Below are positions 168 to 27,271 of a stretch of DNA of 64,000 nucleotides, piece by piece (position 1 is the first letter of the stretch; every line of letters starts with the position of its first letter). This DNA comes from an uncultured archaeon. GTDB lineage: Archaea; Thermoproteota; EX4484-205; JAAOZP01. The notes under the pieces are model-generated. The model worked only from the letters and a program-made list of their open reading frames with translations, was not told the DNA's origin and did no database searches. The translations under genes and the position numbers were made by a program. Location of the stretch: NCBI GenBank assembly GCA_938045545.1, contig CALIBN010000024.1:1-64000 (forward strand), read 5' to 3'.

Positions 168-1445
168 ATGGCTGAGGAGCAGTTCTTCCAGATGTTCCTA
201 AGCGGGTTGCGTGAATCAATAAGCAGGCTGAGCCCGCTAAGCTTCAACTCGTCGCCTTTCAAAGCTTCCTATCTTTCAAAATGGTACCCCTATGATGAAA
301 CGTGTGAGCCGGATGGGGCCGTGGCTGCTTGCGATGGGAGCATCAGCGAGTCAAGCTTCTCCGGAGGCCTGGTTGTCTGGGTTGCTAGATCCGTTGCACA
401 TGTTTACTTAAAGGAGGGAGAGCCGATCAGCCTTCTGGAGGCTGGGGTGGAAGCGGGCTATAGGCTTCAGGGCAGAGGGCTGTTTCTAAGGGCCCTGGAG
501 CTTAGAACGTTGAGGCTGGCTTTAGAAAAAGCCTCCCAGTTGTACGGGAGGGTCTTCGGCATTTTCGACGGAAGCTTCTACCTTACTTTTCTACACCACA
601 GGGACCGCTTAAGGGCTTTTTCAAGGGTTTTTGAGAATTACGTTAGGGAGCTGACTCTTCTCCTAAGGCTTGTCGACGAGGAAAAGATGGCCGTGGGTGT
701 TTCTAAGGACAGCGACATCAGTTATCTCAGGGCTAAGATAATGATTGATATTCTGCACAGCATGGATCCTGAGATTGCTGCTGAAGCAAGGGGGAGAAGC
801 ATAAGGAGGATTAGGGAAGTGTTGGGAGAGAAGGTTAAGGGACTGCCTCCGGGTTCAATGTTGAAAACCTGTTTTGAAGAGTTGGAGCAGGATTTTTCAG
901 ATGAAGGGGTTTACAGCGAGATAGCCCCCAGCCCAGGTTTCACGAAGCCTCTTCTTCTAGCGCCGCAGACGATTTTCCTAACCGGGGAGGCTAAGTCAAC
1001 CAGCTGGTGGGACTCAGGGTTCAGGGCGCGTCTAAAGCGTGATGAAGAGTTAAAAGGGGTTCTCGAGGCGCTTGACGACTATTTTTCAAACCCTCCGGTG
1101 GCGTTAACATACTGGATGCCGAGTATGGGCTCCAAAGTATACAGGGTCGACGTGCCTTCAAGCATCCTCGGTTACACTGGCCAGGGTGGAAGTCTTTCAG
1201 GAGACTTTTTCATAGGCGATTCGGGCGTTGAAAAGGCGAAAAAGATATTCTGCGTATTAAATAGGCTGCAGAAAGAGCCTCATGTAGTGCACCCTCTCGC
1301 TGAAGTGGACTCTATTGCCAGGCTCAGTAGGAGCATCTACAAGGATGCTTATGAGCCGGTTGTCGTCGAAGAGTTGAGGAGGAGAGGTTTTAAAGCAAGC
1401 CCTAGGAGGAGAAGCATTAGGGATGCTGTGTTGAGGGGATACTGA
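168..1445 (+). CDS. nurA: NurA-family 5'-3' nuclease
   Basis: ACDGS and IFDGS acidic motifs, GVSKDS; adjacent to herA-mre11-rad50. Confidence 0.8.
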   Translation: MAEEQFFQMFLSGLRESISRLSPLSFNSSPFKASYLSKWYPYDETCEPDGAVAACDGSISESSFSGGLVVWVARSVAHVYLKEGEPISLLEAGVEAGYRLQGRGLFLRALELRTLRLALEKASQLYGRVFGIFDGSFYLTFLHHRDRLRAFSRVFENYVRELTLLLRLVDEEKMAVGVSKDSDISYLRAKIMIDILHSMDPEIAAEARGRSIRRIREVLGEKVKGLPPGSMLKTCFEELEQDFSDEGVYSEIAPSPGFTKPLLLAPQTIFLTGEAKSTSWWDSGFRARLKRDEELKGVLEALDDYFSNPPVALTYWMPSMGSKVYRVDVPSSILGYTGQGGSLSGDFFIGDSGVEKAKKIFCVLNRLQKEPHVVHPLAEVDSIARLSRSIYKDAYEPVVVEELRRRGFKASPRRRSIRDAVLRGY

Positions 1446-3001
1446 TGGAGCCGCTTGGAAGAGTGATAGAGGAGTCCACCCCTTACGGTTTCGTTTTTAA
1501 AACAGGTATAGATAATCCAGTAGCCCTCCACGACTATGTTTTCGTCGAGGTGAATAATTTTGACGATGGAAGGCTGGAGAAGGTAAGGGTTTTAGCGGAG
1601 ATCGTCGGCCTGGCTTCTAAAAACCCCCTTGCGACGGAGAGGCTGGCTGCTGAGCAACAGGTGTCGCCATACTCGTACAAGCTGGTTTCAGCAGAGGTGG
1701 TGGGGTATCTTAAGGATGGGCGAATCATGAGGCCGAAGGTTGCTCCAGACCCTAACGCGCCTGTCTACAGGGCTGACGACGAGCTTCTTCAAACATTCTT
1801 CTCAGGAGTGAAGAGGAGGATACCCGTGTACGTAGCGATGCTCCTCAACAGGCCCATGGTTAAGGTACCGATACATCTTCAAGACCTTCAGTTTCATTTA
1901 GGAGTTTTCGCAGCTACTCGAGCGGGGAAATCATATTTCGCCGGCAGGCTGATCGAGGAGATTCTCGTGAACACGCCTTTCCCAGTAGTCGTCATAGATA
2001 TTCATGCGGACTACGTTATGATGGATAGGCTGGTTAAAGGCAACAGGCATGGCGAGTTCAACACCGTTGTCTACTATCCGCCTGGCGCTCCGAAAATAGG
2101 CGGGGTGACCGCTGAACAGAGGGAGCTCCAACTAAGCCCTGAGCAGCTGACATACGAGGCGATAATCGCGCTTCTTGGAACTACCCTGGGGGAGAGGCAG
2201 AAAATCGTTTTGAGAAACATCTTGAGGAGGCTTAAATCTGAGAAACGGCCTTTCGGTCTGGGGGACATAACCGACTTAATCAGGAACGAGCTGGAGGAAA
2301 CAGATAGCGATGGTAAGCCGGTGCTTAAGGGAGAGGGTAGAGCCAGGTATGAGAGTCTTCTCGCCCGGCTGGAAGACCTTGGGGAAGAGGTTTCGCTACC
2401 CCCGGCTGGGATGAGTATCTCCGAGCTGCTGGCTCCGAAGACGCTGAGCGTCATCTGTCTAAACGGGCTGCGTTCAAGGGTTCAAGACGCGTACGCCAGT
2501 ATAATTATAGACACCCTGTTCAGACACCAGGTTTCAAGTAAGAGCGACGAGAAGAACTTTACTCCCGTTTTCCTCTTCGTCGAGGAGGCTCACCGTATAG
2601 CTTCTGAGAAGAGCGGGGGTTATGCTGTCAGAACCATATCCACAGCTATAAGGGAGGGTGCCAAGTTCGGGCTCTTCATAACTCTGATAAGCCAGCGTCC
2701 GAGAAACATAGACCCAGACATATTGAGCAACGTCGGGAACTACGCGGTGATGAGAATAACCAACCAGCAGGATCAGAGCGTAATAGAGAATGCCAGTGAA
2801 AGCTTTTACCATAGGCTTATACAGGACCTTCCCGGGCTAAACCAGGGGGAGGCTGTGCTAGTCGGGCCTTTCGTACCTCTTCCGGCTCACGTGAGGACCC
2901 TGGACAGGAGGACGGTTCACCACGGTGTAACGCCTGAGCTCAGCAATATCATGGAAAGGATTAATGAGCAGCTTAGGCAGAGGGAAACGGGCAGGTGGTG
3001 A
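1445..3001 (+). CDS. herA: HerA helicase/translocase with N-terminal HAS barrel
   Basis: HAS-barrel-like N-terminus, Walker A AATRAGKS, IDIHADY, Walker B VEEAH, ISQRP. Confidence 0.85.
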   Translation: MEPLGRVIEESTPYGFVFKTGIDNPVALHDYVFVEVNNFDDGRLEKVRVLAEIVGLASKNPLATERLAAEQQVSPYSYKLVSAEVVGYLKDGRIMRPKVAPDPNAPVYRADDELLQTFFSGVKRRIPVYVAMLLNRPMVKVPIHLQDLQFHLGVFAATRAGKSYFAGRLIEEILVNTPFPVVVIDIHADYVMMDRLVKGNRHGEFNTVVYYPPGAPKIGGVTAEQRELQLSPEQLTYEAIIALLGTTLGERQKIVLRNILRRLKSEKRPFGLGDITDLIRNELEETDSDGKPVLKGEGRARYESLLARLEDLGEEVSLPPAGMSISELLAPKTLSVICLNGLRSRVQDAYASIIIDTLFRHQVSSKSDEKNFTPVFLFVEEAHRIASEKSGGYAVRTISTAIREGAKFGLFITLISQRPRNIDPDILSNVGNYAVMRITNQQDQSVIENASESFYHRLIQDLPGLNQGEAVLVGPFVPLPAHVRTLDRRTVHHGVTPELSNIMERINEQLRQRETGRW

Positions 3002-3007
3002 GACACG

Positions 3008-4267
3008 GTGAAGATAGGGGTTTTTGCCGACACCCACATAGGGAGAAACATACCTAGAGAAGTCGGCGAGCTTAGGAGAAACGCTTATCGCCACGCCTTC
3101 ACTCAGGCCATCGATATTTTCGTAAAGGAAAAAGTGGAATGCGCGATCCATTTGGGAGACCTTTTTGAGAAACGCAGCATGATGTCTGAGGACAGTGTTT
3201 TCGTCAAGGAGGAGTTGCAGCGCCTAGTCAACTCTATTCATGAGGAGCATGGTGGAGAAGTATCCGTATTCCTCATTAGGGGGAACCATGACGGTGCCCT
3301 TGACAACAATGCTCTGGATTTCGTTAAGCATCCTCTCGCAAAATATCTCAAGGTGGTGGGTGAGGCCGCTATCAGGGGGGAGGAGGAATCCTATTTTTTC
3401 AAAGGCATCCGGTTAATAGGACTACCTTACCATCCATACATATCGCGTGTTTTCAAGAACGTGAAAAACGTGATCCAGAGAGGGTTTAAGATGGAGGGAG
3501 AGATTAAGATTCTCGCGGTACACAACTTTATTCAGGGGTATCACGAGGTTCCTCCAGGAGTCCCATCGCATAACTGTCTTACACTTAGGGATTTTGACGA
3601 GCTTGGGGCCGATATGGTTTTAGCCGGCCACTATCATGGAAAGGTCAACCCGATGGAGAGTAACGGGACGCTTTTCCTAACGCCTGGCGCGACTGAGGCA
3701 GTCGACCTGTCTGACGAAGGCCCCTTCGGCGTCTACGTGCTGGACGGGGGACAAGTAAGGTTCCAGCCGTTAAAACCTCTGCATGAAATACGCAATGTCG
3801 AAGTGGATTCAAAAGGCGCTGTGAAACCCTGCGAATGGTTCGTCGAACAATCTGTTCGCGAAATAGATGCTTACTCCTCCGATCTTCAGGCTAGAGGTGT
3901 TGATGGGATGTTGCGCCTAGTTTTAAACGGGTACACCGAGAATGATCCCCGTAACATAGACATGGCTCTCCGGAAGGAGATCGCGAAGAAAACAGTCTCA
4001 ACAAGGTTGCTGCACGTTGGCTTGGTTAACCGTGTTGAAGACGTTAAGCAGAGAGCAGTCTTCTCCAGGCTTGGCAGCGGACTAGACTATGCGATGGAGA
4101 TTTTGAAATCGCTCGGGGAAACGTCGGGGGAAGCGATGAGGATCGTGGAGGAGCTGAGTATTACTCTCGATGAAAAGGCGAGTCAGAGAACGGGGCTTCT
4201 CACAGACTCAGATAGGAGCCGCTTCGTAAAACGCTGGGTTCAGATTTTAGAGAAGGCAGGTGGCTGA
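3008..4267 (+). CDS. mre11: Mre11/SbcD metallophosphoesterase nuclease
   Basis: Motifs DTHIG, GDLFE, GNHD, GHYH. Confidence 0.85.
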   Translation: MKIGVFADTHIGRNIPREVGELRRNAYRHAFTQAIDIFVKEKVECAIHLGDLFEKRSMMSEDSVFVKEELQRLVNSIHEEHGGEVSVFLIRGNHDGALDNNALDFVKHPLAKYLKVVGEAAIRGEEESYFFKGIRLIGLPYHPYISRVFKNVKNVIQRGFKMEGEIKILAVHNFIQGYHEVPPGVPSHNCLTLRDFDELGADMVLAGHYHGKVNPMESNGTLFLTPGATEAVDLSDEGPFGVYVLDGGQVRFQPLKPLHEIRNVEVDSKGAVKPCEWFVEQSVREIDAYSSDLQARGVDGMLRLVLNGYTENDPRNIDMALRKEIAKKTVSTRLLHVGLVNRVEDVKQRAVFSRLGSGLDYAMEILKSLGETSGEAMRIVEELSITLDEKASQRTGLLTDSDRSRFVKRWVQILEKAGG

Positions 4268-6260
4268 AATGAGTGGATTAATCGAAACGCTTAGGCTTAG
4301 AAACCTGGAGCGTTACAGGAATGTTCAGCTAGACTTCTCAGCTGGGCTTAACCTCATAAAAGGTAGGAATTCGACTGGTAAAACTACTCTGCTCAACGCA
4401 TTGACGTTCGCGCTTTTCGGCGAGGTGCCTGAGGCTAGGCCGAAGCTGCTGGTTTCAAAGCTGCCTGGCTCAGGGGAGATGAGCGTTTACGTAAGGTTCA
4501 GAAGCCCGGTGAGCGGCAAGGTTGTTGAAGTTGAGAGAAGGGGCAGTTTAGACAGGAACGGGGATTACAGGACATTGGAACGAATTCTCCGGATTGACGG
4601 TAAAAATGCGTCCTTCAGTAGCGAGGAGGACTTGAGGAGCATGATCACTGGACTTCTCGGGATGAGTTTAAGGAAGTTTATCAACCTGGTCTATGTTAGG
4701 CAAGGTAGGTTAACCGAGATACTGGAGCCTCAGAGGGAACAAATGGACTCAGTGATGGGAATAACGCTGTTAAGAGAGCTGCGTGAACAGCTGGACGGGG
4801 CGCGGAGAGAGCTGGAGAGGTTTAACGGGAAGGATGCTGCAACCGAGATTCAGAGTCTTGAGGAACGGGTGCCGGAGCTCGATTCAAGCCTGAGACAGAT
4901 CGACGAGGACATTTGCCGGTTGAATAGGGAGGTTCAGGAGCTTGAAAACCTTTTGAAGAAGGCGGAATCAAGCGAGTTAACAGAGCTTCTCAACTGTATC
5001 AAGAAGAGGGAGGAGGTTGAGGAGGAGCTGAAGAAGATTTCTTCAAGGAGTCGAGAGCTTCTGGAGCAAGCCGGTGTCTCTTCGATTGAAAAGTTGGAGG
5101 AGAAAATTAGTTCGAGTGAAAAGGAGCTGGAGGCACTGAAAGCAGCGAGAAATAGTTTGAGGAAGGAGCTTGATGCCTCCATGGAGGAATGGTTAAGCGT
5201 GAAGAGCCTTGTTGAAAACCTTGCGAAACAAGTAAGGGAGCGCGAGTCTCTTGCTGGAAGCGGGGCTTCTAAATGCCCCACGTGCGGCCAAGACCTGCAA
5301 CCCGCTGTGATCCAGAGAATTCTGGAGGAGGATCGCAGCTCATTAGCCAGGGCTAGCCTCGAGGAGGCTGAGGCGAGAAAGGTTTACGAGGTGAGAAGCG
5401 TCGAGCTTCAAAACCTTGTTGAAAAAATAAACGCTGTTGAAGGCGAATGCTCAAGGATGAAGACCCTGAGACACCGTCTGAAAGAATATTTGGACTCTGC
5501 TGAAACCCTCGTGAAAACAAGGGGTGAAACCATCGCTAAGGTAAAAGAGATACTAAAAGTCCTCGACCTGCCTTTCACCCCGGAGGATCCTGAACTGAAG
5601 CTGAAGCTGGCCCAGCAGCTCCCCCTTCAGCCGGAGGAGTTAGCCAGAAGAAGGGGTGAGCTTGCTGAGAAGAAGAATGTTTTAGAGAGGAAGATGAGTA
5701 TGAGGGCAGATATCAGCAGGAAACTGGAGGACTACAGTAGGCTGCTCAACCAGCTTAAAAGAAGGATGGAGAAGGCTGGTCTCGCACACAGGTTCTCCCA
5801 GCTCTTCGACCAGGCTGTTGAAACCAGGAGGAGAGAACTGATAAAACGCATAGAGTTCAGAGCATTAGAGTACTATAGGGCTATGACGGATCAGCATGTC
5901 TACGACGCTATAATCATAAACCCGGAGGACTATTCTGTTTCAGTGCATCCGAAAGGGTTGACAGACCCTATTCCCGCAACCAGAGTCGGAGGAGGACACC
6001 AGACTATTCTGGCTCTAGCCATACGTCTCGCCCTCCTCGATGCTCTTGGGCTGAATTCACTGCTGATACTTGACGAGCCCACTTACGGTGTTGACTCGGA
6101 AAACCTTCCGCAGGTTGCAAGCTACATAGGGGAAGCCTCTAAGCAACTCTCTCAAATGATACTTGTAACCCATCACAATATTTGCGAGGAAGAGGCTTCA
6201 AACATTATAGAAGTAAGTGTTCAAGAAGACGGTTCGTCTAAAGCAGAGATTAAAACATAG
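4260..6260 (+). CDS. rad50: Rad50/SbcC SMC-like ATPase (short, 666 aa)
   Basis: Walker A GRNSTGKT, Q-loop YVRQG, coiled coil with CPTC zinc hook, LILDEPT, VTH; ATG at 4269 is an alternative start. Confidence 0.85.
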   Translation: MAEMSGLIETLRLRNLERYRNVQLDFSAGLNLIKGRNSTGKTTLLNALTFALFGEVPEARPKLLVSKLPGSGEMSVYVRFRSPVSGKVVEVERRGSLDRNGDYRTLERILRIDGKNASFSSEEDLRSMITGLLGMSLRKFINLVYVRQGRLTEILEPQREQMDSVMGITLLRELREQLDGARRELERFNGKDAATEIQSLEERVPELDSSLRQIDEDICRLNREVQELENLLKKAESSELTELLNCIKKREEVEEELKKISSRSRELLEQAGVSSIEKLEEKISSSEKELEALKAARNSLRKELDASMEEWLSVKSLVENLAKQVRERESLAGSGASKCPTCGQDLQPAVIQRILEEDRSSLARASLEEAEARKVYEVRSVELQNLVEKINAVEGECSRMKTLRHRLKEYLDSAETLVKTRGETIAKVKEILKVLDLPFTPEDPELKLKLAQQLPLQPEELARRRGELAEKKNVLERKMSMRADISRKLEDYSRLLNQLKRRMEKAGLAHRFSQLFDQAVETRRRELIKRIEFRALEYYRAMTDQHVYDAIIINPEDYSVSVHPKGLTDPIPATRVGGGHQTILALAIRLALLDALGLNSLLILDEPTYGVDSENLPQVASYIGEASKQLSQMILVTHHNICEEEASNIIEVSVQEDGSSKAEIKT

Positions 6261-11449: not shown

Positions 11450-11612
11450 TTCTCTTGCCGCATTTGTTACTAGTTACCATATGCTTGTCTTAAATAACGT
11501 TGTATGTAGCATTATAATCCTCTTACTTCATGAGGCACATAACGGACCTTATAGGCATGCTTAACGAGCATCTTAAGAGCGTCTTCAAACAGGTCTTTAT
11601 TAATCAATTCCT

Positions 11613-12717: not shown

Positions 12718-14690
12718 CTATGTTTGAACTACGATTGGTATCGCCATATTCATCCTCGGCAGTAATGCTATTGCTTCACCCATTTTCAGCTCCTGAATTT
12801 TTAAGGCTTGCTCCTCGTTAAGGTGCATCGTATCCGCGATCTTTTCAACATCACTAGAGTACTGCAACCTAAGGCAAATTATAGTCCCGCACAATCCCAA
12901 GACATCTCTCGACACCGTTAATGGTCTCTGATCTATAAGCCAAACAGACTCTCCGAACTTCCTCATCTCCCTGAGCATCTTCTCCACTATGGTCTCCTGA
13001 CCCTCAAACCTAGCTGGGGCGATGTTATGGGCTTCCTCGCAGACTATAACGTGCGGCAAACCCCTGTTGGGCTTCTTCCTTCTATAATCGTAAACCCGCT
13101 TCAGCATCATCCACGTAAATATGTTTGCATCCCTATCCGTATCCAAGTCGCTGAGATCAAAGATGACCATATTTGAGAGAAGCCTCTCCATCATCCCTTC
13201 CCGTTCACCGATTGCGTCAAAAACTTTCCCAAAACTTCCTTGAGTGAGCTCGCTCAACCTTCCTACTAGCGAGAACAGCTTGTCCCTAGCTTTTCCTGAA
13301 GGAAGGAACATCAGGTCTTCAGAGTCAACGCTCCTCTCGAGGGATTCCACGAAGTCTACGAAGTCTGGGCGTTTTTTCCTCTTTAACATACTTCAAATAC
13401 ATCCTCCTGAAAACGTGGGAAACCAATGGCCCGAACTCATCGGGCCAGGCCATCGCGAAGACCTCGCCCAGGATCTTAGCATGGCCCTCTGGGTCACCGT
13501 GGTGCTCCAAGAGGTTTATCTTGGCGTTATTCGCATCGAGGACCAAGGCGTCATCGAATTCATCAACGTATTCCCCATGCCTGTCGAAGACCATCGCAAA
13601 ACCTCCTAGCTCCCTGTATCTCCTCAGAAGTGCCTTTGTTAGAGTGCTCTTCCCTGAGCCCGGGACGCCGAATATCGCCATGTGAAGAGGCAGATCTTCT
13701 ATGCCTATCTTAACCTCAATCCTCTTTCTCATAGATTCGTATATCCTACGAGTATTCCATTCCTCTCCAGCCCAGCTGGGTCAAAGGCCCCGAAGTCAAC
13801 GATCCTCTTGGGCGTGTAAGATGCGCTCGGCGTTATGGGCTCCGGGAAGCTTACGAATGACGATAGCTCATTCGCTAGTTAGGTGGAGTCTTTTAGAATC
13901 CACGATTCCCCTGGCGAGAATGCTCCTCGCTACCCCACTTAGACCCAGCCAACCGGCCTCTTCCAGCTTAACTCCGTACGATGAGGAGAAGGCCGCTTTA
14001 ACTGCCTCCACATAATTCCTCTGCTCAAGATAGGCTTGTTTAGGGCTTCTTGTTGAAGGACCTATCACGACGATAATGGGAGAGCACGTCCAACACCCAA
14101 CATCGTTGCTAATCCTTTCGTATCTCTGACGAAGCCTCTCGAGCTCTGTGGATTTGTCCAAGTCATACCCTATGAGCTCTCCCCTGCTGTTATAGAGCCC
14201 CTTCTCCCTCAGCTTTCTGTAGGCTTTCGAGTACCGTAAGGAAATGCTCCTCTTCTTGGCCCAGAGGCTTAACGCGTGGAAAACTCCCTTGCAAGACTTG
14301 GACGCAGAATCTCGGTGAGCAACCGGATTCTGCAGAGGATCTTAAAGCCTTTTCAAGCGCATCTTCTGGAATGTTGAGCTCATCTTCCTTTAATTTCATG
14401 GATAGGAAAGAGGCTGCGGAGACCCTTCGGCCTTTAAGCAGGATCAAGACATTCCTATGCTTTGAGATCGGTAGGCCTCCCAAGGGCCACAGGGCGGCCT
14501 CGGGGGAAGCCTCAAGAGCCTCTAGCTCAGCGCCCGGAAAGCCGGCGAGTACGCTGGCCCTCATCCTCGAGAATATTTTACTGAGCCCTTCAATCGACCG
14601 GGATGCTGCTGAGAGCCTCGCCTCATAGTTAAACGGCTCGTAGGATACCGTGAACATACCTTCAAAGCCGGTTGCGGAGAGGCCATGCAT
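12718..14690 (-). pseudogene. Frameshifted, 5'-truncated paralog of the 731-aa HerA/VirB4-like ATPase
   Basis: ORFs 14190-14690, 13868-14161, 13325-13732 and 12718-13389 align consecutively with 22772-24967 (GLSATGFEG, CWTCSPII, GVPGSGKS, CEEAHNIAP). Confidence 0.9.
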
Positions 14691-14756
14691 GGCTTTTTCG
14701 CTAGGTACTGGCGCTAGCCAGGGCTATCGCTCCAAGCTCCCGGGAGGTGATGTGGA

Positions 14757-15837
14757 ATGTCTTCTCCGGAACCAGAGAATAGAGGTAACTATATCATAGC
14801 AAGGAAGACTATAAAGGCGAAGATACTTGAGCTGAAGAGGGAGGAAGAGGAACTCCTTAGGCGCGAGTACGAGAACTTCCAGCGCTATCTACAGGGCGAG
14901 AAAACAGTTCCGCTATATGCTGCTACTAAGCAACAAGCAGATAGACTCCTGAAGGAGCTGAACGGGAAGCTGAGGGAAAGGGAGTATCCACTAATACTGA
15001 GGAACGACACCTACCGAATTGAAATCGAGCAAAGCCCCTACTTGCTTAAGATACCCGTCTACGGTGTCTGGGGAGGGATAAGGGTTCCGATTAGGACCCA
15101 CAACCCCATAACTAGCGATATGAGATGTAAGGAAGCTAAGGTAATCCACAAAGATAACGAGTGGTTCGTCTACATCTGCATCGAGAAGGAGGTTGAGAAG
15201 AGGATTCCGAGGAACATTTGGCCATAGATATGGGGATAAGGTGGATCGCTACGACAGTCAATTCCAGCAACCCGGTCCCAAAGTTTTACGGCAGGGAGCT
15301 GAGGAGGGTCAGGGGACGCTTCTTTTACCTAAGAAGAAGCCTTGCATTGAAGAAGGCATACGGAGCAATAAAGAAGATTGGTGATAGGGAGCGAAGGATG
15401 GTGAACGATATCCTGCATAAGATAAGCAGGAGGATGGTGGACGAGGCCTTGGAGACGGATGCGATGATCGCCATGGGGAACTTGAAGGGAATTAGGGAAA
15501 ATGATAAGGGCAAAGGTTCAACAGGAAACTCAATGGATTTCCATACTGGAAGCTCAGCAAGTTCATAGAGTATAAGGCGAGGTGGCTTGGAATAAAAGTG
15601 ATCAAAATAAACGAGAGGAACACTTCGAAGCTTTGCCATAGATGCGGAAAGAAAGGAATCCGCGATGGAAGCCTCTTCAAATGCCAGAGCTGCAACTACT
15701 CATGCGACGCAGACTACAACGGAGCAATGAACATAATGAAGCGGGCCATGCGCTATATGCGAATGGCAGGGGCTGAGTTGACACAGCCCATAACCCGGCA
15801 GGATGAACCCACAGGGCGACGAACCGGGAACCCCTAG
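14757..15837 (+). pseudogene. tnpB: Frameshifted TnpB
   Basis: Three ORF pieces match 20495-21538; 1-nt deletions near 15215 and 15512; stop TAG changed to CAG. Confidence 0.9.
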
Positions 15838-15851
15838 CATGGGGATGTCAA
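15790..15851 (+). mobile_element. IS200/IS605-type right end / omegaRNA 3' scaffold (copy 1)
   Basis: ggatgaacccacagggcgacgaaccgggaacccctagcatggggatgtca, near-identical to copy 2; similarity stops at TCA. Confidence 0.8.
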
Positions 15852-19180: not shown

Positions 19181-20449
19181 ATGAGAACATCCAGAATACC
19201 GGGCTTCTACAATTTAAGCGTGGCGGAGAGGCTGAGCAGGATAGTAGAGTACGCCGGGCTGACGGAGGAGGAGGCTAAACTCCTCTCGAAAGAGGGCAAT
19301 CTAAGCCTAGAGACCGCTGACAGAATGGTTGAAAACGTGATTGGGACAATGGCTTACCCCTTCTCTGTTGCACTCAACTTCCTCATAGATGGTAAAGAGT
19401 ATATCGTCCCCATGGTTATAGAGGAAACCTCCGTCGTAGCGGCCGCCAGCAACGCTGCTAAAATGACTAGGGCGAAAGGAGGGATATTCACGGACGCCAC
19501 AGAGCCCATCATGATAGGGCAGGTGCAACTGACTGGAGTAACCAACCCCCTCACGGCTAAAATGAAGATCCTTGAACACAGGGACGAAATATTGAAGCTT
19601 GCCAACGATCAGGATCCTGTTCTCGTAAAGCTCGGCGGAGGCGCTAGAGATGTTGAAGTTAGAGTGGTGGATAGTAACGTGGGCCCAATGGTGATAACGC
19701 ATCTCCTAGTTGACGTTAGGGATGCGATGGGGGCGAACGCTGTCAACACTATGTGCGAAGCCGTAGCACCCCTGATAGAGAAAATAACCGGTGGAAAAGT
19801 ATATTTGAGGATAATATCGAACCTTGCCGATAGAAGACTCGTAAGGGCTAGAGCGACGGTTGCCAAAGAGGAGGTCGGCGGCGAGGAGGGTGTCGACGCA
19901 ATAGTGAAAGCATGGGCTTTCGCAGCAAGCGACCCCTATAGATGCTCAACACATAATAAGGGGATTATGAACGGTGTCATTGCAGTTGCTCTGGCTACTG
20001 GGCAGGACCATCGAGCTATAGAGGCGGGTGCCCACGCTTTCGCTGCAAGGACGGGCAAATACCTGCCTTTAACCGTCTGGGAAAAGGATGAGAATGGCGA
20101 TCTCGCTGGAACGCTGGAGATGCCCATGGCGGTTGGCTTAATAGGCGGGGCAACTAAAACTCACCCTATAGCGAGGATCGCGATTAAAATCCTTGGCGTT
20201 AAAACCGCGACGGAATTGGCGAGAGTGATGGGCGCCGTAGGTCTAGCTCAGAATCTTGCAGCCCTTAGAGCGTTGGCGCTCGAGGGGATTCAAGCAGGCC
20301 ATATGAGGCTTCACGCGCGTAACATAGCGATTATGGCGGGTGCCACGGGAGACCTGATTGAGAAGGTCGCTGAGCAGATGATTAAGGAAAGGAAGATAAG
20401 GTTCGATAGGGCCCAGGAGCTCGTCAAGGAATTCACGGAGAAGAAGTGA
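19181..20449 (+). CDS. mvaA: HMG-CoA reductase, class II (MvaA type)
   Basis: SRIPGFY, ENVIG, EETSVVAAAS, DAMGAN, THNKGIMNG, GIQAGHMRLH. Confidence 0.95.
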   Translation: MRTSRIPGFYNLSVAERLSRIVEYAGLTEEEAKLLSKEGNLSLETADRMVENVIGTMAYPFSVALNFLIDGKEYIVPMVIEETSVVAAASNAAKMTRAKGGIFTDATEPIMIGQVQLTGVTNPLTAKMKILEHRDEILKLANDQDPVLVKLGGGARDVEVRVVDSNVGPMVITHLLVDVRDAMGANAVNTMCEAVAPLIEKITGGKVYLRIISNLADRRLVRARATVAKEEVGGEEGVDAIVKAWAFAASDPYRCSTHNKGIMNGVIAVALATGQDHRAIEAGAHAFAARTGKYLPLTVWEKDENGDLAGTLEMPMAVGLIGGATKTHPIARIAIKILGVKTATELARVMGAVGLAQNLAALRALALEGIQAGHMRLHARNIAIMAGATGDLIEKVAEQMIKERKIRFDRAQELVKEFTEKK

Positions 20450-20560
20450 CATCCCCATGCTAGGGTTCCCGGTTCGTCGCCCTGTGGGTTCATCCTACCG
20501 GGTTATGGGCTGTGTCAACTCAGCCCCTGCCATCCACATGTAGCGGATGGCTCGCTTCAT
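20426..20560 (-). ncRNA. Predicted TnpB omegaRNA (reRNA) 3' part plus guide extending antisense into the mvaA 3' end
   Basis: TnpB guide RNAs are known to derive from the right end plus flank; stem CCC-N3-GGG kept across copies with a changed loop; 5' boundary unknown. Confidence 0.55.
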
Positions 20561-21538
20561 TATGTTCATCGCTCCGTTGTAGTCTGCGTTGCATGAGTAG
20601 TTGCAGCTCTGGCATTTGAAGAGGCTTCCTTTGCGAGTTCCTCTATTTCCGCATTTATGGCATAGCTTCGAAGTGTTCTTCTCATTTACTTTTATTACTT
20701 TGATCCCGAGCCATCTAGCCTTGTACTCTATGAGCTTGCTGAGCTTGCGATAGGGGAATCCATTTAGTTTCCTGTTGAACCTCTTGCCCCTATCGCCATC
20801 CCTGATCCCCTTTAAGTTCCCCATTGCGATCATCGCATCCGTCTCCAAGGCCTCGTCCACTATCCTCCTGCTTATCTTATGCAGAATATCGTTCACCATC
20901 CTTCTTTCCCTATCTCCAATTTTCTTGATCGCGCCGTATGCCCTCTTCATGGCGAGGCTTCTTCTTAGGTAAAAGAAGCGTCCCCTGACCCTCCTCAGCT
21001 CCCTGCCGTAAAACTTTGGGACCGGGTTGCTGGAATTGACTGTCGTAGCGACCCACCTTATCCCCATATCTATGGCCAAGACATTCTTCGGGATCCTCTT
21101 CTCAACTTTCTTCTCAACGCAAATGTGGATGAACCACTCGTTGCCCCTGCGAATCACCTTGGCCTCCTTAAGCCCCATATCGCCCGTTATGGGCTCATGA
21201 GTCCTAATCGGAACCCTTATCCCTCCCCAAACGCCGTAGACGGGTATCTTAAGCAAGTAGGGGCTTTGCTCGATTTCAATTCGGTAGGTGTCGTTCCTCA
21301 GCATTAGCGGATACTCCCCCTCCTTCAGCTTCCCGTTCAGCCTCCTCAGAAACCTCTCCGCGGCTTGCTTCGTGGCAGAGTATACCATAGCGGATTTCTC
21401 TCCCCTCAGGTAGCGCTGGAAGCTCTCGTACTCGCGCCTAAGGAGTTCCTCTTCCTCCCTCTTAAGCTCAAGTATCTTCGCCTTTATAGTCTTCCTAGCT
21501 GTAACATAGTTACTTTTCTCTGATTCTGAAAAAGACAT
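20495..21538 (-). CDS. tnpB: TnpB RNA-guided endonuclease (347 aa, rearranged RuvC-II type)
   Basis: LAIDMG (RuvC-I), AMGNLKGIR, NEKNTSKLCHKC and CQSC zinc finger, NADYNGAMNI (RuvC-III). Confidence 0.95.
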   Translation of the reverse strand: MSFSESEKSNYVTARKTIKAKILELKREEEELLRREYESFQRYLRGEKSAMVYSATKQAAERFLRRLNGKLKEGEYPLMLRNDTYRIEIEQSPYLLKIPVYGVWGGIRVPIRTHEPITGDMGLKEAKVIRRGNEWFIHICVEKKVEKRIPKNVLAIDMGIRWVATTVNSSNPVPKFYGRELRRVRGRFFYLRRSLAMKRAYGAIKKIGDRERRMVNDILHKISRRIVDEALETDAMIAMGNLKGIRDGDRGKRFNRKLNGFPYRKLSKLIEYKARWLGIKVIKVNEKNTSKLCHKCGNRGTRKGSLFKCQSCNYSCNADYNGAMNIMKRAIRYMWMAGAELTQPITR

Positions 21539-21712
21539 TTAGCACCACCTCCTGGGAGCCGGAGCGATAGCCCTGGCTAACGCTGATACTTAGCGAAAGC
21601 CACGCTGGGCCTATACCCGATTAAAAGCGGGTTCCAGCCACTACAAAGCAGGCTAAGAGGTTCTTTCTAAAACTCCCTGTTTCATGCTCCTCCGCAGCTC
21701 CCAATTATGTTA

Positions 21713-21862
21713 AACAGATGGGAGGTATATAGATATTCTGATGGCATATGGATGTCACTCGGATGGAACACGGATGACACACGGCCGCCTTTTTAAATAT
21801 GCGGAGGGGGCGTTGCAACGGAGTAAAGCATTTCTACCTCTCCGAATGTTAAAAGTAGGCAA
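21713..21862. promoter_or_regulatory. Bidirectional promoter block for tnpB (-) and the membrane wHTH gene (+)
   Basis: TATA-like ctatatac (- strand, 21725-21732) and ttttaaat (+, about 21791-21798) flank the array; palindrome cgttgcaacg at 21811-21820. Confidence 0.65.
21740..21783 (+). repeat. 4 x 11-bp tandem repeat array B
   Basis: gatggcatatg, gatgtcactcg, gatggaacacg, gatgacacacg. Confidence 0.9.
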
Positions 21863-22663
21863 ATGGGGATGCTGGGACACGTAGTGAGGCTGTTTTCCGC
21901 TGTAATCATTGGACTGCTGTTTTCATACCTCGTTTATCGGGCCTTGACCACTCTAGATAGTTTCCTAGCATCGATCCTCTCTCTCGGCCTCATGATGAGC
22001 ATGCCCCTCACGCTAATCCTGGTTTTCTACAACAGGCTTCGCTGGGGAGCATTTTTCTTCGTGGCCGTCTGGCTCCTCTACGCCTCAGCGGTATGGCTCT
22101 ACATGCTGGCCGGCTTTTTCACAACAGTCTTTCATGGACAGGCTTGGATACCCGTTTTCATATTAAGCATCGGCGGAATAGCCTTTCTCTTAGTTGTTCT
22201 CAGGAGGAGAGGGATAGGCCTCCCGCAGGTATTTCAAGGGAAAGGGGAGAGCTTGAAAGGTGTTAAAGAGATTCAGGAGGTTGCTGAGGAGCCCGTAGAA
22301 GGGGTCGTTGAGCCCGAGCCCCAAGAGGAGCCGGATTTCTCCCGAACCATGGAACTCCTGGATGAGGCCCACTGCAGGATCCTTGAAACCCTATTGGAGT
22401 CGGGCAGCCCGTATTCGAAGAAGGAGTTAGCCAAGGCTATTGGGGCAACATACAGAAGGGTTCTTAGGGCGGTCGAGGAGCTTGAGAAGCTTGGGCTCGT
22501 CGAGGTTAAGGAAGCACCGAGGAGTGCGAGGGGCTCCTCCGTAGTTCATGCCGTCAAGCTATCCCCAGCTGTATCTAGGAGGAGCGAGCTGGCCAAGGAG
22601 ATGGTTAAGAGGAGGATGGAGGAGCTCGGGGCGGTTAAGGGCAGGGCTAAAACAAGCGCATAA
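21863..22663 (+). CDS. Membrane-anchored winged-helix protein (about 4 N-terminal TM helices, acidic linker, C-terminal wHTH)
   Basis: Four hydrophobic segments in residues 1-115; E/P-rich linker; ILETL..SKKELAKAIGATYRRVLRAVEELEKLGLVE wHTH pattern. Confidence 0.8.
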   Translation: MGMLGHVVRLFSAVIIGLLFSYLVYRALTTLDSFLASILSLGLMMSMPLTLILVFYNRLRWGAFFFVAVWLLYASAVWLYMLAGFFTTVFHGQAWIPVFILSIGGIAFLLVVLRRRGIGLPQVFQGKGESLKGVKEIQEVAEEPVEGVVEPEPQEEPDFSRTMELLDEAHCRILETLLESGSPYSKKELAKAIGATYRRVLRAVEELEKLGLVEVKEAPRSARGSSVVHAVKLSPAVSRRSELAKEMVKRRMEELGAVKGRAKTSA

Positions 22664-22677
22664 AACCCATCGTTTGC

Positions 22678-22732
22678 CGTGTGTTATCCGTATGACATCC
22701 GTGTTCCATCTGAGTGCCATCCGTGTTACATC
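22678..22732 (-). repeat. 5 x 11-bp tandem repeat array C, inverted relative to A and B
   Basis: Minus-strand units gatgtaacacg, gatggcactca, gatggaacacg, gatgtcatacg, gataacacacg. Confidence 0.9.
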
Positions 22733-22771
22733 GGGATGCTTATGAATGGGGATATCGATGATTGAACGGAA

Positions 22772-24967
22772 TTGATCGAGGAGTTCAGAAGGGTAGTCTA
22801 CGAGAGGGTTGAGGTGAGCAGCTTTAGGAAGCGCGTTGAGCAAGCCCAGCCTAAGCGAGTTAAGGCCTTCAAAATCCTCGGAAGTACGGTTGTCCTAGGT
22901 AAAGACGTTTTCAGCGTTTCGGGGAGGCTTGTTTCAGAGATAAGGCTCAGGTCGGCTGATTACGAGGAGAATAAATCCGAGGTTAAGATGCTTCAAGGCC
23001 TTTCGGCAACGGGCTTCGAGGGAATGTTCACGATATCCTATGAGCCCTTCAACTATGAGGTGAGGTTCTCAATAACCTCGAAATCCCCAAGGGAGCTTAG
23101 ACTCATGGCTTCAAGGCTTAAGGCCTCAATACTGGCAAGCAGTCCCGGAGCTGAGCTCGAATCGCTTAGAGCTTCCATCGATAACGTGCTATGGCCCCTA
23201 GGAGGCTTCCCGGTCTCCAGGCGGGAAAACAGGTTGATCCTGCTTAGGGGTAAGGAAGTCTCAGCAGCATCATTCCTGTTAATTAAGCTGAAAGAGGAGA
23301 TGATTAGCCTTCTCGAGGATGGCCTTGAGAACGCCTTAAGGTCCTCTGCGGAATCAGGATGTTCGTTCAGGTTCTGCGTCCCGGTCAAATCATGCAGAGG
23401 ATTCGCCCACCTTCTAAACACATGGGTAAAGAAGAAGGATATTCTATCCAGATATTCCAAGGCCTACAGGGAGCTTAGGGAGAATGGGCTTTTTAACAGC
23501 AGGGGCGAGCTCATAGGCGTTGACCTAAGTAAGTCAACTAAGCTTGAGCTTCTCCGCTCTCAGTACGAGAGGCTTAACGGACAAACGGGATGTTGGACAT
23601 GCTCTCCGATAATAGTAGTGATAGGAACTCCCGAGAGGGACCCTAGGCAGGCTTGTGAAAAACAGAGGGAGTACGTTGAAGCTGTCAAGGCATCTTTCTC
23701 ATCATCCTACAGGGTTAAGATCGAGGAGGCTGGGTGGCTGAACCTAGGGGAGGTAGCGAGAAGCATACTCGTCAGGGGGATAACGAGCTTGAACAAACTT
23801 CATGTAACCGGCGATGAGTTATCTTGTTTCATAAGCTTTCCCAAGCCAATAACGCCAAGCATATCCTACATGCCGAAGAAGATCGTTGAATTCGGAGCCT
23901 TCGACCCGGCTGAGCTCAGGAGGAATGGTATACTCCTAGGATACTATGAATCCATGAGAAAGAGGTTTGGGGTCAGAATAGGGATAGAAGACCTTCCCCT
24001 ACATTTAGCTATATTCGGCGTCCCGGGCTCAGGGAAGAGCACTCTAACAAAGGCACTTCTGAGGAGATACAGGGAGCTAGGAGGTTTTGCGATGGTCTTC
24101 GACAGGCATGGAGAGTACGTTGACGAATTCGATAATGCCCTAGTCCTCAATACGGATAATGCCAGGATAAACCTCCTAGACCACCACGGTGACCCGGAGG
24201 GCCATGCTAAGATCCTGGGCGAGGTCTTCGCGATGGCTTGGCCGGATGAGTTCGGGCCGTTGGTTTCACACGTTTTCAGGAAGATGTACCTGAAGTACAT
24301 TAAAGGAGTCAGCCACCCCGATTTCCTGGAATTCGTAGAATTCCTCGAGAAGGACGCCAACTCGGAGGACCTGACGTTCCTTCGCTCCGGAAAGGCTAGG
24401 GATAAGCTGTTCTCGCTAGTGGGGAGGCTTAGCGAGCTAGCCCAGGGGAGCATTGGAAAGGTGTTCGACACGGTTGGGGGGCAAGGGGGCGTGATGGAGA
24501 GGCTGCTCTCGGGCATGGTCGTCTTCGATTTAAGCGGCATGGATACGGATAGGGATGCGAACATACTTACATGGTTGATGCTGAAGCGAATCTACGATTA
24601 TAGAAGGAAGAAGCCCAACAGGGGTTTGCCGCACGTTATAGTCTGCGAGGAGGCTCATAACATCGCTCCAGCTAGGTTTGAGGGCCAGGAGACCATAGTT
24701 GAGAAGATGCTTAAGGAGATGAGGAAGTTCGGCGAGTCTGTTTGGCTTATAGATCAGAGACCATTAACGGTGTCGAGGGATGTCTTGGGATTATGTGGGA
24801 CCATAGTCTGCCTGAGGCTACAATACTCGAGCGACGTTGAGAAGACCGGGGACACGATGCACCTGAACGAAGAGCAGAGGCTGAGGCTGCAGGAACTCGA
24901 GTTGGGGGAGGCGATAGCATTGCTGCCGAGAATGAAGACTGCGATACCAATCACCGTCCAGCTGTAG
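22772..24967 (+). CDS. HerA/VirB4/FtsK-superfamily ATPase (DUF87-like) with an uncharacterised N-terminal region of about 390 aa
   Basis: HLAIFGVPGSGKS, FDRHGEY, VCEEAH, EMRKFG, IDQRP, GEAI. Confidence 0.85.
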   Translation: MIEEFRRVVYERVEVSSFRKRVEQAQPKRVKAFKILGSTVVLGKDVFSVSGRLVSEIRLRSADYEENKSEVKMLQGLSATGFEGMFTISYEPFNYEVRFSITSKSPRELRLMASRLKASILASSPGAELESLRASIDNVLWPLGGFPVSRRENRLILLRGKEVSAASFLLIKLKEEMISLLEDGLENALRSSAESGCSFRFCVPVKSCRGFAHLLNTWVKKKDILSRYSKAYRELRENGLFNSRGELIGVDLSKSTKLELLRSQYERLNGQTGCWTCSPIIVVIGTPERDPRQACEKQREYVEAVKASFSSSYRVKIEEAGWLNLGEVARSILVRGITSLNKLHVTGDELSCFISFPKPITPSISYMPKKIVEFGAFDPAELRRNGILLGYYESMRKRFGVRIGIEDLPLHLAIFGVPGSGKSTLTKALLRRYRELGGFAMVFDRHGEYVDEFDNALVLNTDNARINLLDHHGDPEGHAKILGEVFAMAWPDEFGPLVSHVFRKMYLKYIKGVSHPDFLEFVEFLEKDANSEDLTFLRSGKARDKLFSLVGRLSELAQGSIGKVFDTVGGQGGVMERLLSGMVVFDLSGMDTDRDANILTWLMLKRIYDYRRKKPNRGLPHVIVCEEAHNIAPARFEGQETIVEKMLKEMRKFGESVWLIDQRPLTVSRDVLGLCGTIVCLRLQYSSDVEKTGDTMHLNEEQRLRLQELELGEAIALLPRMKTAIPITVQL

Positions 24968-25280
24968 CGTGCTCAACCATGCTCGGGCTAAAGCCCCGAG
25001 AGCGGCTGGATTGGGCTCCATGAGTTAATCGTAGAATGTTTATGAGTTCAGCCGATGGTACATACGCATCGTTAGCGGGGAATAATTTAAGACCATTATT
25101 TTCCTAACTTCCGCTTTTGGCATATGCTAAAACGTTAAAGCCTAGTTTTCAAAGCCTAGTTTAAAAGTCTTCAGTAACATCCTTCAGCAGCGTTAAGCAA
25201 GTGTTCGAATTTCTGTACACGCTGTTCGCAACAATACTGTTAAAAACAGGTGGGGGCAAATAGCAGGATGGGGTTCGAAA

Positions 25281-26117
25281 ATGGAGGAAATGTTAAGCAG
25301 GAAATGGTTGCTCGTGCTCAGCGTGGTTTTCGTCGCAACCATCGGCGTAAACCTGGCTCTACTAGTCGGAATATATCCGGTGCTCATCAGCCAGCGGGCA
25401 GGCTCTGAGAACCGCTTCAACACGGTTGAAGAAGGCTTTAAAACCTGGGGCACCGCCGGCCTGCTGGACACCGGCCAGGCTGAGCAGCGGGCGAAGACGA
25501 TAAGCGTAACCGGCACCGGCGTGGTTAAGGCTAAGCCTGACAGGGCGGTTTTAAGCCTCAGCGTGGTTACGCAGGCGGAAAGCGCGGGGGAAGCGATCTC
25601 TGAGAACGCGGGTAAAATGGACAGCGTCGTAAAAGCCGTCAGGAGCATGGGGATTCTGGAGAACCAGACGGAAACATCCGCGTACAGTCTGACCCCTATT
25701 TGGGATTATCCTAAGGAAGGCGTCTCGCCCAGAATAGTTGGCTACACGTGTTCCAACACTATTAGGGTCACGGTTAAGGATTTGAACAAGGTGGGGGAGG
25801 TGATTGACGCAGCGGTTAAGGCTGGTGCAAACCAGGTTTCCTCGCTTCAATTCACGATTTCCGACGAGGCAATGCGTCAACTCGGGTTGAATGCTTTGAG
25901 CCTTGCTGTGAAAGACGCCTCCTCTAAAGCCAGCACGATAGCTGCCGCAGCCGGAGTAACGCTGGTCGGCCCGGTTTCAATAAGCCTCTCCGGATACTCT
26001 CCGTATTTTAGAAGCTACGCTTTTGAATCCGTGATGGGAAGCGTTGCGACGCCGATAATTTCACCGGAGGAGGTCAGCGTAACCGTGAGCGTTTCAGCGG
26101 TTTACGAGTTTAATTGA
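25281..26117 (+). CDS. SIMPL (DUF541) domain protein
   Basis: N-terminal TM; ISVTGTGVVKAKPDRA, IDAAVKAGANQV, DASSKA. Confidence 0.9.
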   Translation: MEEMLSRKWLLVLSVVFVATIGVNLALLVGIYPVLISQRAGSENRFNTVEEGFKTWGTAGLLDTGQAEQRAKTISVTGTGVVKAKPDRAVLSLSVVTQAESAGEAISENAGKMDSVVKAVRSMGILENQTETSAYSLTPIWDYPKEGVSPRIVGYTCSNTIRVTVKDLNKVGEVIDAAVKAGANQVSSLQFTISDEAMRQLGLNALSLAVKDASSKASTIAAAAGVTLVGPVSISLSGYSPYFRSYAFESVMGSVATPIISPEEVSVTVSVSAVYEFN

Positions 26118-26652
26118 CATTCCCCCGGTTGAAGCCGGTGGGATTCCCGGTTCGTCGCCCTCAGGGCTCATCCCCTCGAGTTATAGCGCGCGCCCTATGG
26201 CCATTAGGAGGCTTACCACTCTCGAAGCATAAGAATGCTTTAAGCCTGTTTAGGGGACGGAAGATCTCGGCAGCCTCATCCCTATTCATGAGGTTAGAAG
26301 ATGCTCTCGAACTTCCTGAGGATGCTCTTGAGAATGCTTTAAGGTCCTCCGAAGAATCCGGTTGCTCGCTCAGGTTCTGCATCCCAGTTAAGTCTTGCAA
26401 GGGAATTTTCCATGCTTTAAGCCTGTGGGCCAGAAGGAAAATTATCTCTTCGCAGTACTCTAGGGCTTACAGGATGTTGAGGGGAAAGGGACTCTACAAC
26501 AGCAGAGGGGAGCTCATAGGCTACGACCTTGGGAAATCCGCCGAACTCGAAAGGCTTCCGGGATACGAGAAGCTCGACGGTAAAGCTGGATGCGGAAATG
26601 CTCCCCTACAATCGTCGTGATAGGCCCTTCAGCAAAAAGCCCTGAACGAGCA
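26114..26652 (-). mobile_element. Internally deleted copy 3: right end fused to an internal fragment of the ATPase gene
   Basis: 26114-26185 homologous to tnpB right ends with a fuller hairpin; about 26190-26652 (+) homologous to the ATPase N-terminal region (LWPLGGLP, CIPVKSCKG, YNSRGELIG). Confidence 0.8.
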
Positions 26653-26812: not shown

Positions 26813-27271
26813 TTGTTGAGCGAGGAGGAGCTAGAGTATAAGCTGCGCGGCAAGACTCTTCAGGTCTACCTCTACCTGATAAGGTCCGGCGGGGACGATA
26901 GCTACGGCGTGAGGGAGGTTCAGAGGGCACTTGGCTTCAAGAGCCCGAGCATAGCGTCATACCATCTTGAAAAGCTGAGGGAACTGGGTCTGCTCGTTAA
27001 GGATGAGAAGGGGGATTATCGCGTCGCTAAAGAGGTCAACATAGGGTTGTTTAAGCTCTACATTAAGATAGGGGAGCTTAGAATGCCGAGGTTCCTACTG
27101 TACGCTTGCTTCATAACCAGCATGGTGGCGACATACCTGCTGGCTTATCCTCAGACGTTCAGCCCACATAATCTTTTCGCGCTACTGGTAAGCTTCTCCT
27201 CGCTCACAATACTCTGGGGCGAGACCCTCCTGATAATGAGGGAAACAAGGTCTAAAACCTTGAAAAAATAG
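26813..27271 (+). CDS. wHTH transcriptional regulator with two C-terminal TM helices
   Basis: GVREVQRALGFKSPSIASYHLEKL; hydrophobic C-terminus. Confidence 0.8.
   Translation: MLSEEELEYKLRGKTLQVYLYLIRSGGDDSYGVREVQRALGFKSPSIASYHLEKLRELGLLVKDEKGDYRVAKEVNIGLFKLYIKIGELRMPRFLLYACFITSMVATYLLAYPQTFSPHNLFALLVSFSSLTILWGETLLIMRETRSKTLKK

Follow-up and report, generated by a model that had tools for sequence, protein, structure and literature searches.

Phased 11-bp repeat arrays around the gene of a membrane winged-helix protein in a mobile archaeal module with TnpB and a HerA/FtsK-type ATPase

Three 11-bp repeat arrays and the module that carries two of them

We analysed a stretch of 64,000 nucleotides (positions 1 to 64,000 of contig CALIBN010000024.1, assembly GCA_938045545.1; in the following the window) from an uncultured hot-spring archaeon. 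The genome holding the window (G000) comprises 2.03 Mb and is 92% complete. The window contains three arrays of 11-bp repeats, two of which, arrays B and C, are located within a 4.5-kb module at 20447–24967. In this module an omega-RNA-like right end is followed by tnpB, a leader, a TATA-like box, array B, a second TATA-like box, the gene of a membrane protein with a winged helix-turn-helix (wHTH) domain, array C, a third TATA-like box and the gene of a HerA/FtsK-superfamily ATPase. The right end (20447–20494, minus strand) represents the 3' part of the omega-RNA-like segment (...GACGAACCGGGAAC, a short hairpin and ...TGTCAC), and the homology among copies of the module stops here; the conserved omega-RNA-like segment reaches upstream into the 3' end of tnpB. 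tnpB (20495–21538, minus strand, 347 aa) is the sole intact copy in the genome. Alignment of its product to solved Cas12f/TnpB-like chains revealed that the RuvC-II Glu is replaced by Gly (motif AMIAMGNLKGI), with the RuvC-I Asp and the RuvC-III Asp being kept. Between tnpB and array B lies a structured leader of about 185 nt (21539–21712, minus strand), which is either a 5' untranslated region (UTR) or a separate RNA.

The three arrays had been reported in an initial annotation of this DNA, and their coordinates, their unit numbers and an exact period of 11 bp without spacers were all confirmed. Array A (27–70, plus strand) consists of the four units GACGATACTCG, GATGGCACACT, GATGGAATACG and GATGCCACTCG. 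Array B (21740–21783, plus strand) also has four units, all of them starting with GATG, and array C (22678–22732, minus strand), inverted relative to B, has five, the fifth of which starts with GATA. The units are tandem direct repeats at approximately one helical turn. Tandem Repeats Finder (TRF) reported a period of 11 at 36–63 (score 35), 21750–21784 (score 42) and 22696–22732 (score 46), together with two period-11 rows at 11555 and 36063 that are unrelated to the arrays. The pattern GATG-N7-GATG-N7-GATG, allowing at most one mismatch, matches eight times in the window, compared to 0.19 matches expected (standard deviation 0.44, maximum 2 in 100 shuffles); seven of these matches fall within arrays A–C and one lies at 1422. 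Throughout the genome, at least three exact GATG motifs spaced by 11 bp occur eight times, compared to zero to one time for each other period between 7 and 15. Three of these eight sites are the array A sequence again in contig overlaps, and one (on contig C17) is chance-like. A chance origin of the phased pattern is excluded.

From 45 units of 11 arrays we obtained the consensus GATG[G/A][C/A]A[C/T][A/T]CG, equal to the GATGDMAYWCG given in the initial annotation. Positions 1–4, 7–8 and 10–11 of the unit are conserved and positions 5, 6 and 9 are free; the score of position 7 is circular, because this position was the filter used to choose the 11 arrays. Neither the window nor four further loci matched any Rfam family at the gathering threshold, and a replication origin, a CRISPR array or a known RNA was rejected on this basis.

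Each array is accompanied by a TATA-like box. The first box of the module (ctatatac, 21725–21732, minus strand) faces the leader and tnpB at 7 nt from array B. A second one (TTTTTAAATA, 21790–21799, plus strand) faces the wHTH gene at 6 nt from array B on its inner side, and a third one (cttatgaa, AATAATTATGAG in other lineages; 22739–22746, plus strand) faces the ATPase gene at 6 nt from array C. All three would be promoter elements. At array A the gap to its own box is 7 nt. The two outward boxes and that of array A lie where they had been proposed, and the arrays do bracket the wHTH gene, with the same orientation relative to the outward boxes. The placement of boxes at 6–7 nt from the array edges at three places is conserved in relatives. 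A scan for sigma-70 promoters and terminators was set aside as not meaningful for an archaeon.

The wHTH gene (21863–22663, plus strand) is the sole gene between arrays B and C. Its product of 266 aa has four membrane helices (residues 3–115), a disordered acidic linker (116–156), a MarR/Lrs14-like wHTH domain (159–233) with the recognition helix at residues 197–209, and a long C-terminal helix. The domain matches the Pfam families HVO_A0114 (6e-8) and HTH_24 (1e-6), with MarR_2 under its cut-off. A structure model of the protein reached a predicted local distance difference test (pLDDT) score of 83–90 across residues 160–210, and the 46 matches listed by Foldseek, whose E-values start at a weak 2e-3, were all wHTH regulators of the MarR or Lrs14 kind or related to these. 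The best score in the ESM Atlas was 0.81, which we take as a lead only.

The ATPase gene (22772–24967, plus strand) encodes 731 aa with the Walker A motif GVPGSGKST, and the protein belongs to the P-loop ATPases of the DUF87/HerA, TrwB-like type. Copies of the module are homologous up to the stop codon of this gene. No HTH match and no membrane helix or hydrophobic segment was predicted in the ATPase; the wHTH domain is encoded by the separate gene. The N-terminal 400 aa of the ATPase have only 17 relatives among 5.8 billion proteins, all of them from metagenome-assembled genomes of Brockarchaeota or Thermoproteota. The AlphaFold2 model (mean pLDDT 45.4) was too poor for a fold search. In the ESM Atlas the N-terminal part led to unnamed clusters at 0.91–0.93 and to DUF8128 on 26% of members at 0.88, again leads only.

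Related loci, array types and decayed copies

Homologues of the wHTH protein were found in 10 of 201 genomes across the phylum, namely in G000, in five further genomes of the same genus, in three genomes from two other families of the order, and as one weak hit. Once the weak hit, one pseudogene and one fragment at a contig end are set aside, the wHTH-array-ATPase core is present at nine other loci in three families of one order (Candidatus Brockarchaeota). The presence of arrays at homologous loci had been set as a check beforehand, and it was borne out: at all nine loci the wHTH gene adjoins an ATPase gene of 717–795 aa with an array in between. A second, inverted array is located upstream of the wHTH gene at seven loci, and two have the downstream array only. 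TRF reported a period of 11 beside the wHTH gene at six of the nine; in G012, G052 and G178 three to four degenerate units were recognised by eye only. The number of units per array ranges from 3 to 8 across loci. The cassette that the arrays enclose runs the other way round, with respect to leader and ATPase gene, in the lineage of G012, which also covers G010 and three metagenome contigs. Searching metagenomes from five sequences yielded six further wHTH loci, all close kin of the G052 or G012 types and without new array types. The constant core is therefore leader, array, wHTH gene, array and ATPase gene.

We distinguished four array types, and both arms of one locus are always of the same type. 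Type T1 (GGATGnCAC) goes with G-A-T-Y-[RK]-R at the turn and start of the recognition helix (G000, G005, G012). G010 has T1 arrays too, its wHTH gene being cut by the contig end and left unaligned. Type T2 (GATCGTACTCA) goes with K-T-T-Y-P-R (G003:C41, G052 and three metagenome contigs), type T3 (GATyGAAyTCA) with K-A-T-Y-S-R (G003:C12, G009) and type T4 (GCrATATGCrG) with x-A-S-Y-K-R..SS (G118, G178). T2 arrays have a super-period of 22 bp, and in G003:C41 the two arms are near-identical across about 55 nt. In all four types the array sequence matches the turn and the start of the recognition helix, so that the co-variation suggested as a second check was found, at the level of four types only. 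The types are not set apart by overall identity of the wHTH domain, by which T1 does not form a group (54% for G000–G012, 53% for G000–G003:C41). The identity of the wHTH proteins is 41–48%, compared to 65–72% for the ATPases and 74–81% for TnpB; such faster divergence than in the neighbours is expected of a specificity determinant.

Array A is part of a decayed module copy. The homology of A and B runs well past the repeats: the fragment with array A (window 1 to about 153) comprises the end of the leader, the TATA-like box, the array, the putative wHTH promoter and the 5' UTR, fused to the upstream region of nurA. From the right end onward the relic comprises a deleted tnpB, the leader, the array, and the putative promoter and 5' UTR of the wHTH gene, and is followed by nurA. 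We surveyed 14 of 16 nurA loci (leaving out L071, located at a contig start, and the paralogue L072) and found the fragment in front of nurA at two of them, in G000 and G005 only. In six other members of the genus nurA follows the same gene, across a short intergenic region that has the native AATAATAAGG box and lacks the fragment; six more nurA loci are in other contexts. Membership of array A in a DNA-repair regulon was rejected for this reason, and array A is not a regulated site in its own right.

The window starts at a contig end, and its positions 1–141 are a 141-bp exact assembly overlap between the end of C29, the start of C24 and the start of C1. Here the assembly graph branches, leading past the end of C29 to nurA on C24 or, alternatively, to a module copy with a deletion on C1. 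In the C1 form the wHTH gene is fused at about codon 20 to the last approximately 50 codons of the ATPase gene. Both continuations exist as single contigs in G005, the join of array A to nurA being located on G005:C126.

The region of array B gave 11 matches in G000, and a search with the whole module found partial copies on C4, C24:66784–67670, C1, C8, C29 and C2. In addition there are about eight solo right ends, and the right end is common to more than ten copies. All right ends stop at ...TGTCA(A/C) with differing flanks, and every copy reaching the ATPase end stops at the ATPase stop codon. A second copy within the window (12733–15850, minus strand) retains a tnpB pseudogene in three frames and a portion of the leader; with arrays and wHTH gene deleted, an ATPase remnant follows immediately. 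Arrays scattered over the genome independently of the unit had been named as an outcome that would speak against its proposed role. Further arrays do exist in G000 (D, E, F and a partial array I), but each of them lies on a truncated module copy. In the relic arrays the cores are mutated (GACG, GGTG) or a unit is missing. Both arrays of the intact module in G005, in contrast, keep GATG (with one GATA unit), as B and C do.

Relic arrays of another type (GATCGTACTCA-like) were noticed at G000:C1 ~24900–25000 (minus strand), G000:C29:10738–10795 and G000:C4:170–314 as well as at L010 and L020. Since these relics lie in genomes that have a live module of the GGATG type or no wHTH match, several specificity types have passed through these genomes.

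A candidate operator function and alternative readings

In the best and simplest reading, which we consider somewhat probable, the arrays serve the membrane wHTH protein as iteron-like, cooperative operator sites at three putative promoters. Binding of the arrays by this protein, whatever its role, seems to us clearly probable. In favour of the operator reading are the phasing, the location of the wHTH gene alone between the arrays, the recurrence of arrays at homologous loci, the match of array type and recognition helix, the fast divergence of the wHTH protein and the intact cores of live modules; a precedent for its logic are the 11-bp iterons of plasmid R1, which are operators of a protein encoded at their own locus. 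Each 11-bp unit would be one binding site, and from the spacing of one helical turn we propose that 4–5 protomers, or 2–3 head-to-tail dimers, would bind cooperatively along one face of the DNA. The arrays would act upstream of the three TATA-like boxes, two facing outward (to leader and tnpB, and to the ATPase gene) and one facing inward to the wHTH gene; given this placement, the wHTH protein would regulate its own gene and co-regulate both neighbours. The membrane anchor may serve in sensing or sequestration. The idea of binding sites, first raised in the initial annotation, passed both tests that could be run, whereas its wider interpretation had to be changed in that array A is a relic and the unit a mobile module. 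If the arrays are sites of the wHTH protein, the locus offers a compact and directly testable system: a membrane-bound archaeal transcription factor, few of which are understood, together with a readable code of four site types versus four recognition helices.

Winged-helix proteins on phased direct repeats are familiar from bacteria. PhoB and related activators bind head-to-tail to direct repeats one helical turn apart (pho boxes) just upstream of the core promoter, and ToxR and CadC bind in the same way while anchored in the membrane. Those proteins are bacterial and of the OmpR type, and anchors such as those of ToxR and CadC combine an N-terminal HTH domain with one membrane helix. Here, in contrast, an archaeal MarR/Lrs14-like domain lies C-terminal to four membrane helices, next to putative promoters of the type with TATA box and transcription factor B recognition element.

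Several points weigh against the operator reading. The TATA-like boxes were picked by eye, and the box on the ATPase side is poor in G000. No RNA run was listed among those containing the stretch. The co-variation of array type and recognition helix lends weak support, as it rests on four independent contrasts, and common descent confounds it in part, since G052 is close kin to its three metagenome relatives, and G003:C12 almost identical to G009. Gene conversion acting on the inverted repeats could also make the two arms alike. G118 and G178 showed no upstream array, so that autoregulation is not general. Finally, a plain operator leaves unexplained the membrane anchor, the constant partnership with a HerA-type motor and the mobility of the cassette.

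The membrane anchor, the constant HerA-type partner and the mobility of the unit leave room for a role of the arrays as a cis-acting site similar to clt or a centromere, a reading which we consider rather unlikely. The membrane wHTH protein would tether the array DNA and present it to the HerA/FtsK-superfamily ATPase for translocation or segregation. The pair would then be a split counterpart of FtsK/TraB, with membrane helices, linker and wHTH domain on one chain and the motor on the other, and regulation would be a by-product as in parC/ParR. Consistent with this, the order wHTH-array-ATPase is constant at 10 of 10 loci, bar the inverted cassette of the G012 lineage, and the wHTH protein combines its four membrane helices with a disordered linker of 40 residues. 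The module is mobile and multicopy, and T2 and T3 occur together in G003 in the manner of incompatibility groups. Furthermore, among NCBIfam models the ATPase best matches CedD, an ATPase of DNA import (NF053655, 1.2e-30). According to PMC11868833, CedD is required for DNA import in Saccharolobus, and the CedD of the Ced import system of Sulfolobales resembles the module protein in having a HerA-clade ATPase domain behind an N-terminal domain of unknown function. However, the match reaches 106.7 bits compared to a cut-off of 600, other HerA models match with scores similar in kind, and the module ATPase has no predicted membrane helix. A contact between the wHTH protein and the ATPase is putative. 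In addition, the module carries no replication, integration, pilus or pore gene, is just 4.5 kb long, and most of its copies are dead.

Two known systems resemble such a cis site. Streptomyces TraB is an FtsK-like ATPase whose wHTH domain recognises short direct repeats, the 8-bp clt repeats, in a cis locus within a minimal mobile unit, as outlined in PMC4447253; TraB-clt is the nearest precedent for a motor combined with a wHTH domain. In TraB the wHTH domain is the C-terminus of the motor, whereas here it belongs to a separate four-helix membrane protein, and the units measure 11 bp instead of 8 bp. The analogy to clt drawn in the initial annotation fails on both of these defining features. 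Moreover, two inverted arrays lie beside TATA-like boxes, and the ATPase is closer to HerA/CedD. The second system is the partition locus of plasmid R1. There, following PMC2241845, the par promoter lies between two groups of 11-bp iterons, five in each, which are the operators of ParR, with approximately one dimer per iteron; ParR binding to parC is cooperative, and the iterons are centromere and operator at once, a cis-acting handle as well as a regulatory site. The likeness to what is described there lies in two clusters of 11-bp direct repeats at a locus encoding a DNA-binding protein. In contrast to R1, where ParR is a ribbon-helix-helix protein and its partner the actin-like ParM, the module pairs a membrane wHTH protein with a HerA/FtsK-type ATPase. 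Its clusters are inverted and flank the gene of the putative binder instead of the promoter alone, and no plasmid is involved. The module ATPase, being of the DUF87/HerA type, does not correspond to the actin-like or ParA-type NTPase of partition systems such as type II (ParMRC).

A reading as recombination or transposition sites appears unlikely to us. In this case the inverted arrays would border an exchangeable or invertible wHTH cassette, or be internal sites for movement of the element, and the phasing would serve a synaptic nucleoprotein complex instead of promoter control. The segment between the arrays is inverted in G012, G010 and three metagenome contigs. Synonymous divergence (dS) is discordant between tnpB and the wHTH gene (0.77 and 2.2 for G000–G003:C41, 0.76 and 0.32 for G000–G005), which points to exchange of the cassette. 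Three truncated copies end at most 30 nt from the inner edge of array B (21772–21795), one Logan contig fuses 21745 to 24538, and arrays are carried along on deletion derivatives. However, the element ends on one side at ...TGTCA(A/C) and on the other at the stop codon of the ATPase gene, with the arrays in its interior. In the 92%-complete genome neither a Y1 TnpA (PF01797) nor a serine recombinase (PF00239) was found, and four tyrosine recombinases above cut-off are all encoded on other contigs. Contigs of four runs contained no strand-switch joints at the arrays, a weak point since contigs drop rare variants, and one contig of the source run covers 21471–23440 in the orientation of the window. 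The inversion is fixed within one lineage and not flipping, and ordinary homologous recombination between inverted repeats of 44–55 bp would suffice for it. With an inversion switch of the Hin/Gin or fim type the locus shares inverted repeats and the occurrence of both orientations across lineages; both orientations within one population were not found among the contigs, and a dedicated recombinase gene is absent from the locus. Subterminal repeats of the IS607 type for a serine transposase were rejected, there being no PF00239 match in the genome and the arrays being internal.

A joint reading of the unit is speculative and in our view decidedly improbable. The 4.5-kb unit might be a new kind of selfish archaeal element in which a MarR-like membrane protein pins its own iterons to the membrane and passes the DNA to a HerA/CedD-like motor, a split archaeal TraB-clt for segregation or for transfer between cells. 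The Glu-less, RNA-associated TnpB, maintained by purifying selection, would be its non-cutting targeting or regulatory partner, and T1–T4 would be incompatibility or specificity groups swapped as cassettes at the arrays.

Tandem duplication by slippage, with non-functional arrays hitch-hiking on a repeated element, is highly improbable: arrays do occur on dead copies and vary from 3 to 8 units depending on the locus, but conservation is position-specific within the units, arrays are kept at the same two places in three families despite replacement of their sequence, and intact cores are confined to live modules.

TnpB, the leader and neighbouring genes

Of more weight than the arrays is the surrounding module. 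On one unit that has moved about the genome it unites a motor of the HerA/FtsK type with a membrane protein that would bind DNA and with a TnpB that has lost a catalytic residue yet is clearly kept by selection. Arrays of iterons or operators as such are known; what appears new is their setting in this module, of which no description was found in a narrow literature search that did not cover supplements. The locus makes testable a domesticated role of TnpB outside bacteria, as well as the question of how uncultured archaea of the TACK group move or hold DNA.

TnpB matches NCBIfam guided_TnpB at 2.1e-49, over the cut-off, with 16 matched stretches genome-wide. The RuvC-II Gly is invariant in five orthologues (including L046:8473–9516, L042:967–1983, L041:6241–7326 and L043:5992–7077) and in all four G000 copies spanning the region. 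The ratio of nonsynonymous to synonymous substitution rates (dN/dS) of 0.10–0.15 in six of six pairs indicates purifying selection. TnpB may be an archaeal nuclease-dead protein similar to TldR that is always located beside the wHTH-ATPase pair. PMC13622181 describes TldR from three bacterial clades, found with fliC, csrA and oppF; in one of them the guide is 9 nt long. With TldR as described there the module protein shares the loss of a RuvC catalytic residue in a TnpB homologue, purifying selection and constant neighbour genes. It differs in being archaeal, in having lost only the Glu of the triad and in still residing on an element that is present in multiple copies and has a right end like that of a transposon. 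Elements of the IS200/IS605 family resemble the module in tnpB, in an omega-RNA-like 3' region, in a precise right end and in multiple copies. No counterpart of their Y1 TnpA was found in the 92%-complete genome, no left-end hairpin with a transposon-adjacent motif was identified, and the Asp-Glu-Asp triad of RuvC is not intact.

No fixed guide or target for TnpB was found. Intact copies have differing flanks past the right end. At the right end the final bases of the element (GGGGATGTCAC, 20447–20466) share the 10-mer GGATGTCACT with unit 2 of array B (21750–21759). This is one match compared to 0.2 expected; we treated it as chance and rejected a TnpB guide directed at the arrays. In other copies the right-end sequence is G[AG][GT]TG[TC]CA[AC], which resembles the unit core, probably also by chance.

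The leader folds with a long-range closing stem (GGGAGC...GCTCCC), and compensatory changes were observed in 9 of 36 predicted pairs among eight sequences, the homologues being those in L046, L042, L041, L039, L051, L004 and L015. It has no Rfam match and could be a new structured RNA. In other lineages where tnpB is absent the leader precedes unrelated genes encoding proteins of 394–404 aa or 533 aa, located at L039:6158–7372 (G012, 404 aa), L047:5533–6717 (G010) and L040:9451–11052 (G052, 533 aa). Neither the 404-aa protein of G012 nor the 533-aa protein of G052 has a credible Pfam family, and the two show no significant mutual similarity (E 0.087). A 52%-identical region of the 404-aa type is contained in an open frame of 1364 aa on contig C22 of G000 (G000:C22:3092–4285).

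Downstream of the module, orf168 (26114–26620, plus strand) is a free-standing gene paralogous to a portion of the N-terminal domain of the ATPase (68% DNA identity between window positions 23189–23625 and 26195–26624). The small protein orf152 (26813–27271) has an N-terminal HTH domain with a weak Csa3-like match and two C-terminal hydrophobic segments, and is another possible membrane-bound regulator. Near the start of the window a nurA-herA-mre11-rad50 operon occupies 168–6260. Its Rad50-like protein is short (666 aa), and all of its products score far under the NCBIfam equivalog cut-offs. In a related organism (run X3) a single contig contains both the end of the 3-hydroxy-3-methylglutaryl-coenzyme A (HMG-CoA) reductase gene (20447) and what corresponds to the window from 25202 onward; the two are oppositely oriented there, and the module is missing between them. 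In G005 the module is located near rad50, the surroundings of the module being rearranged between close relatives.

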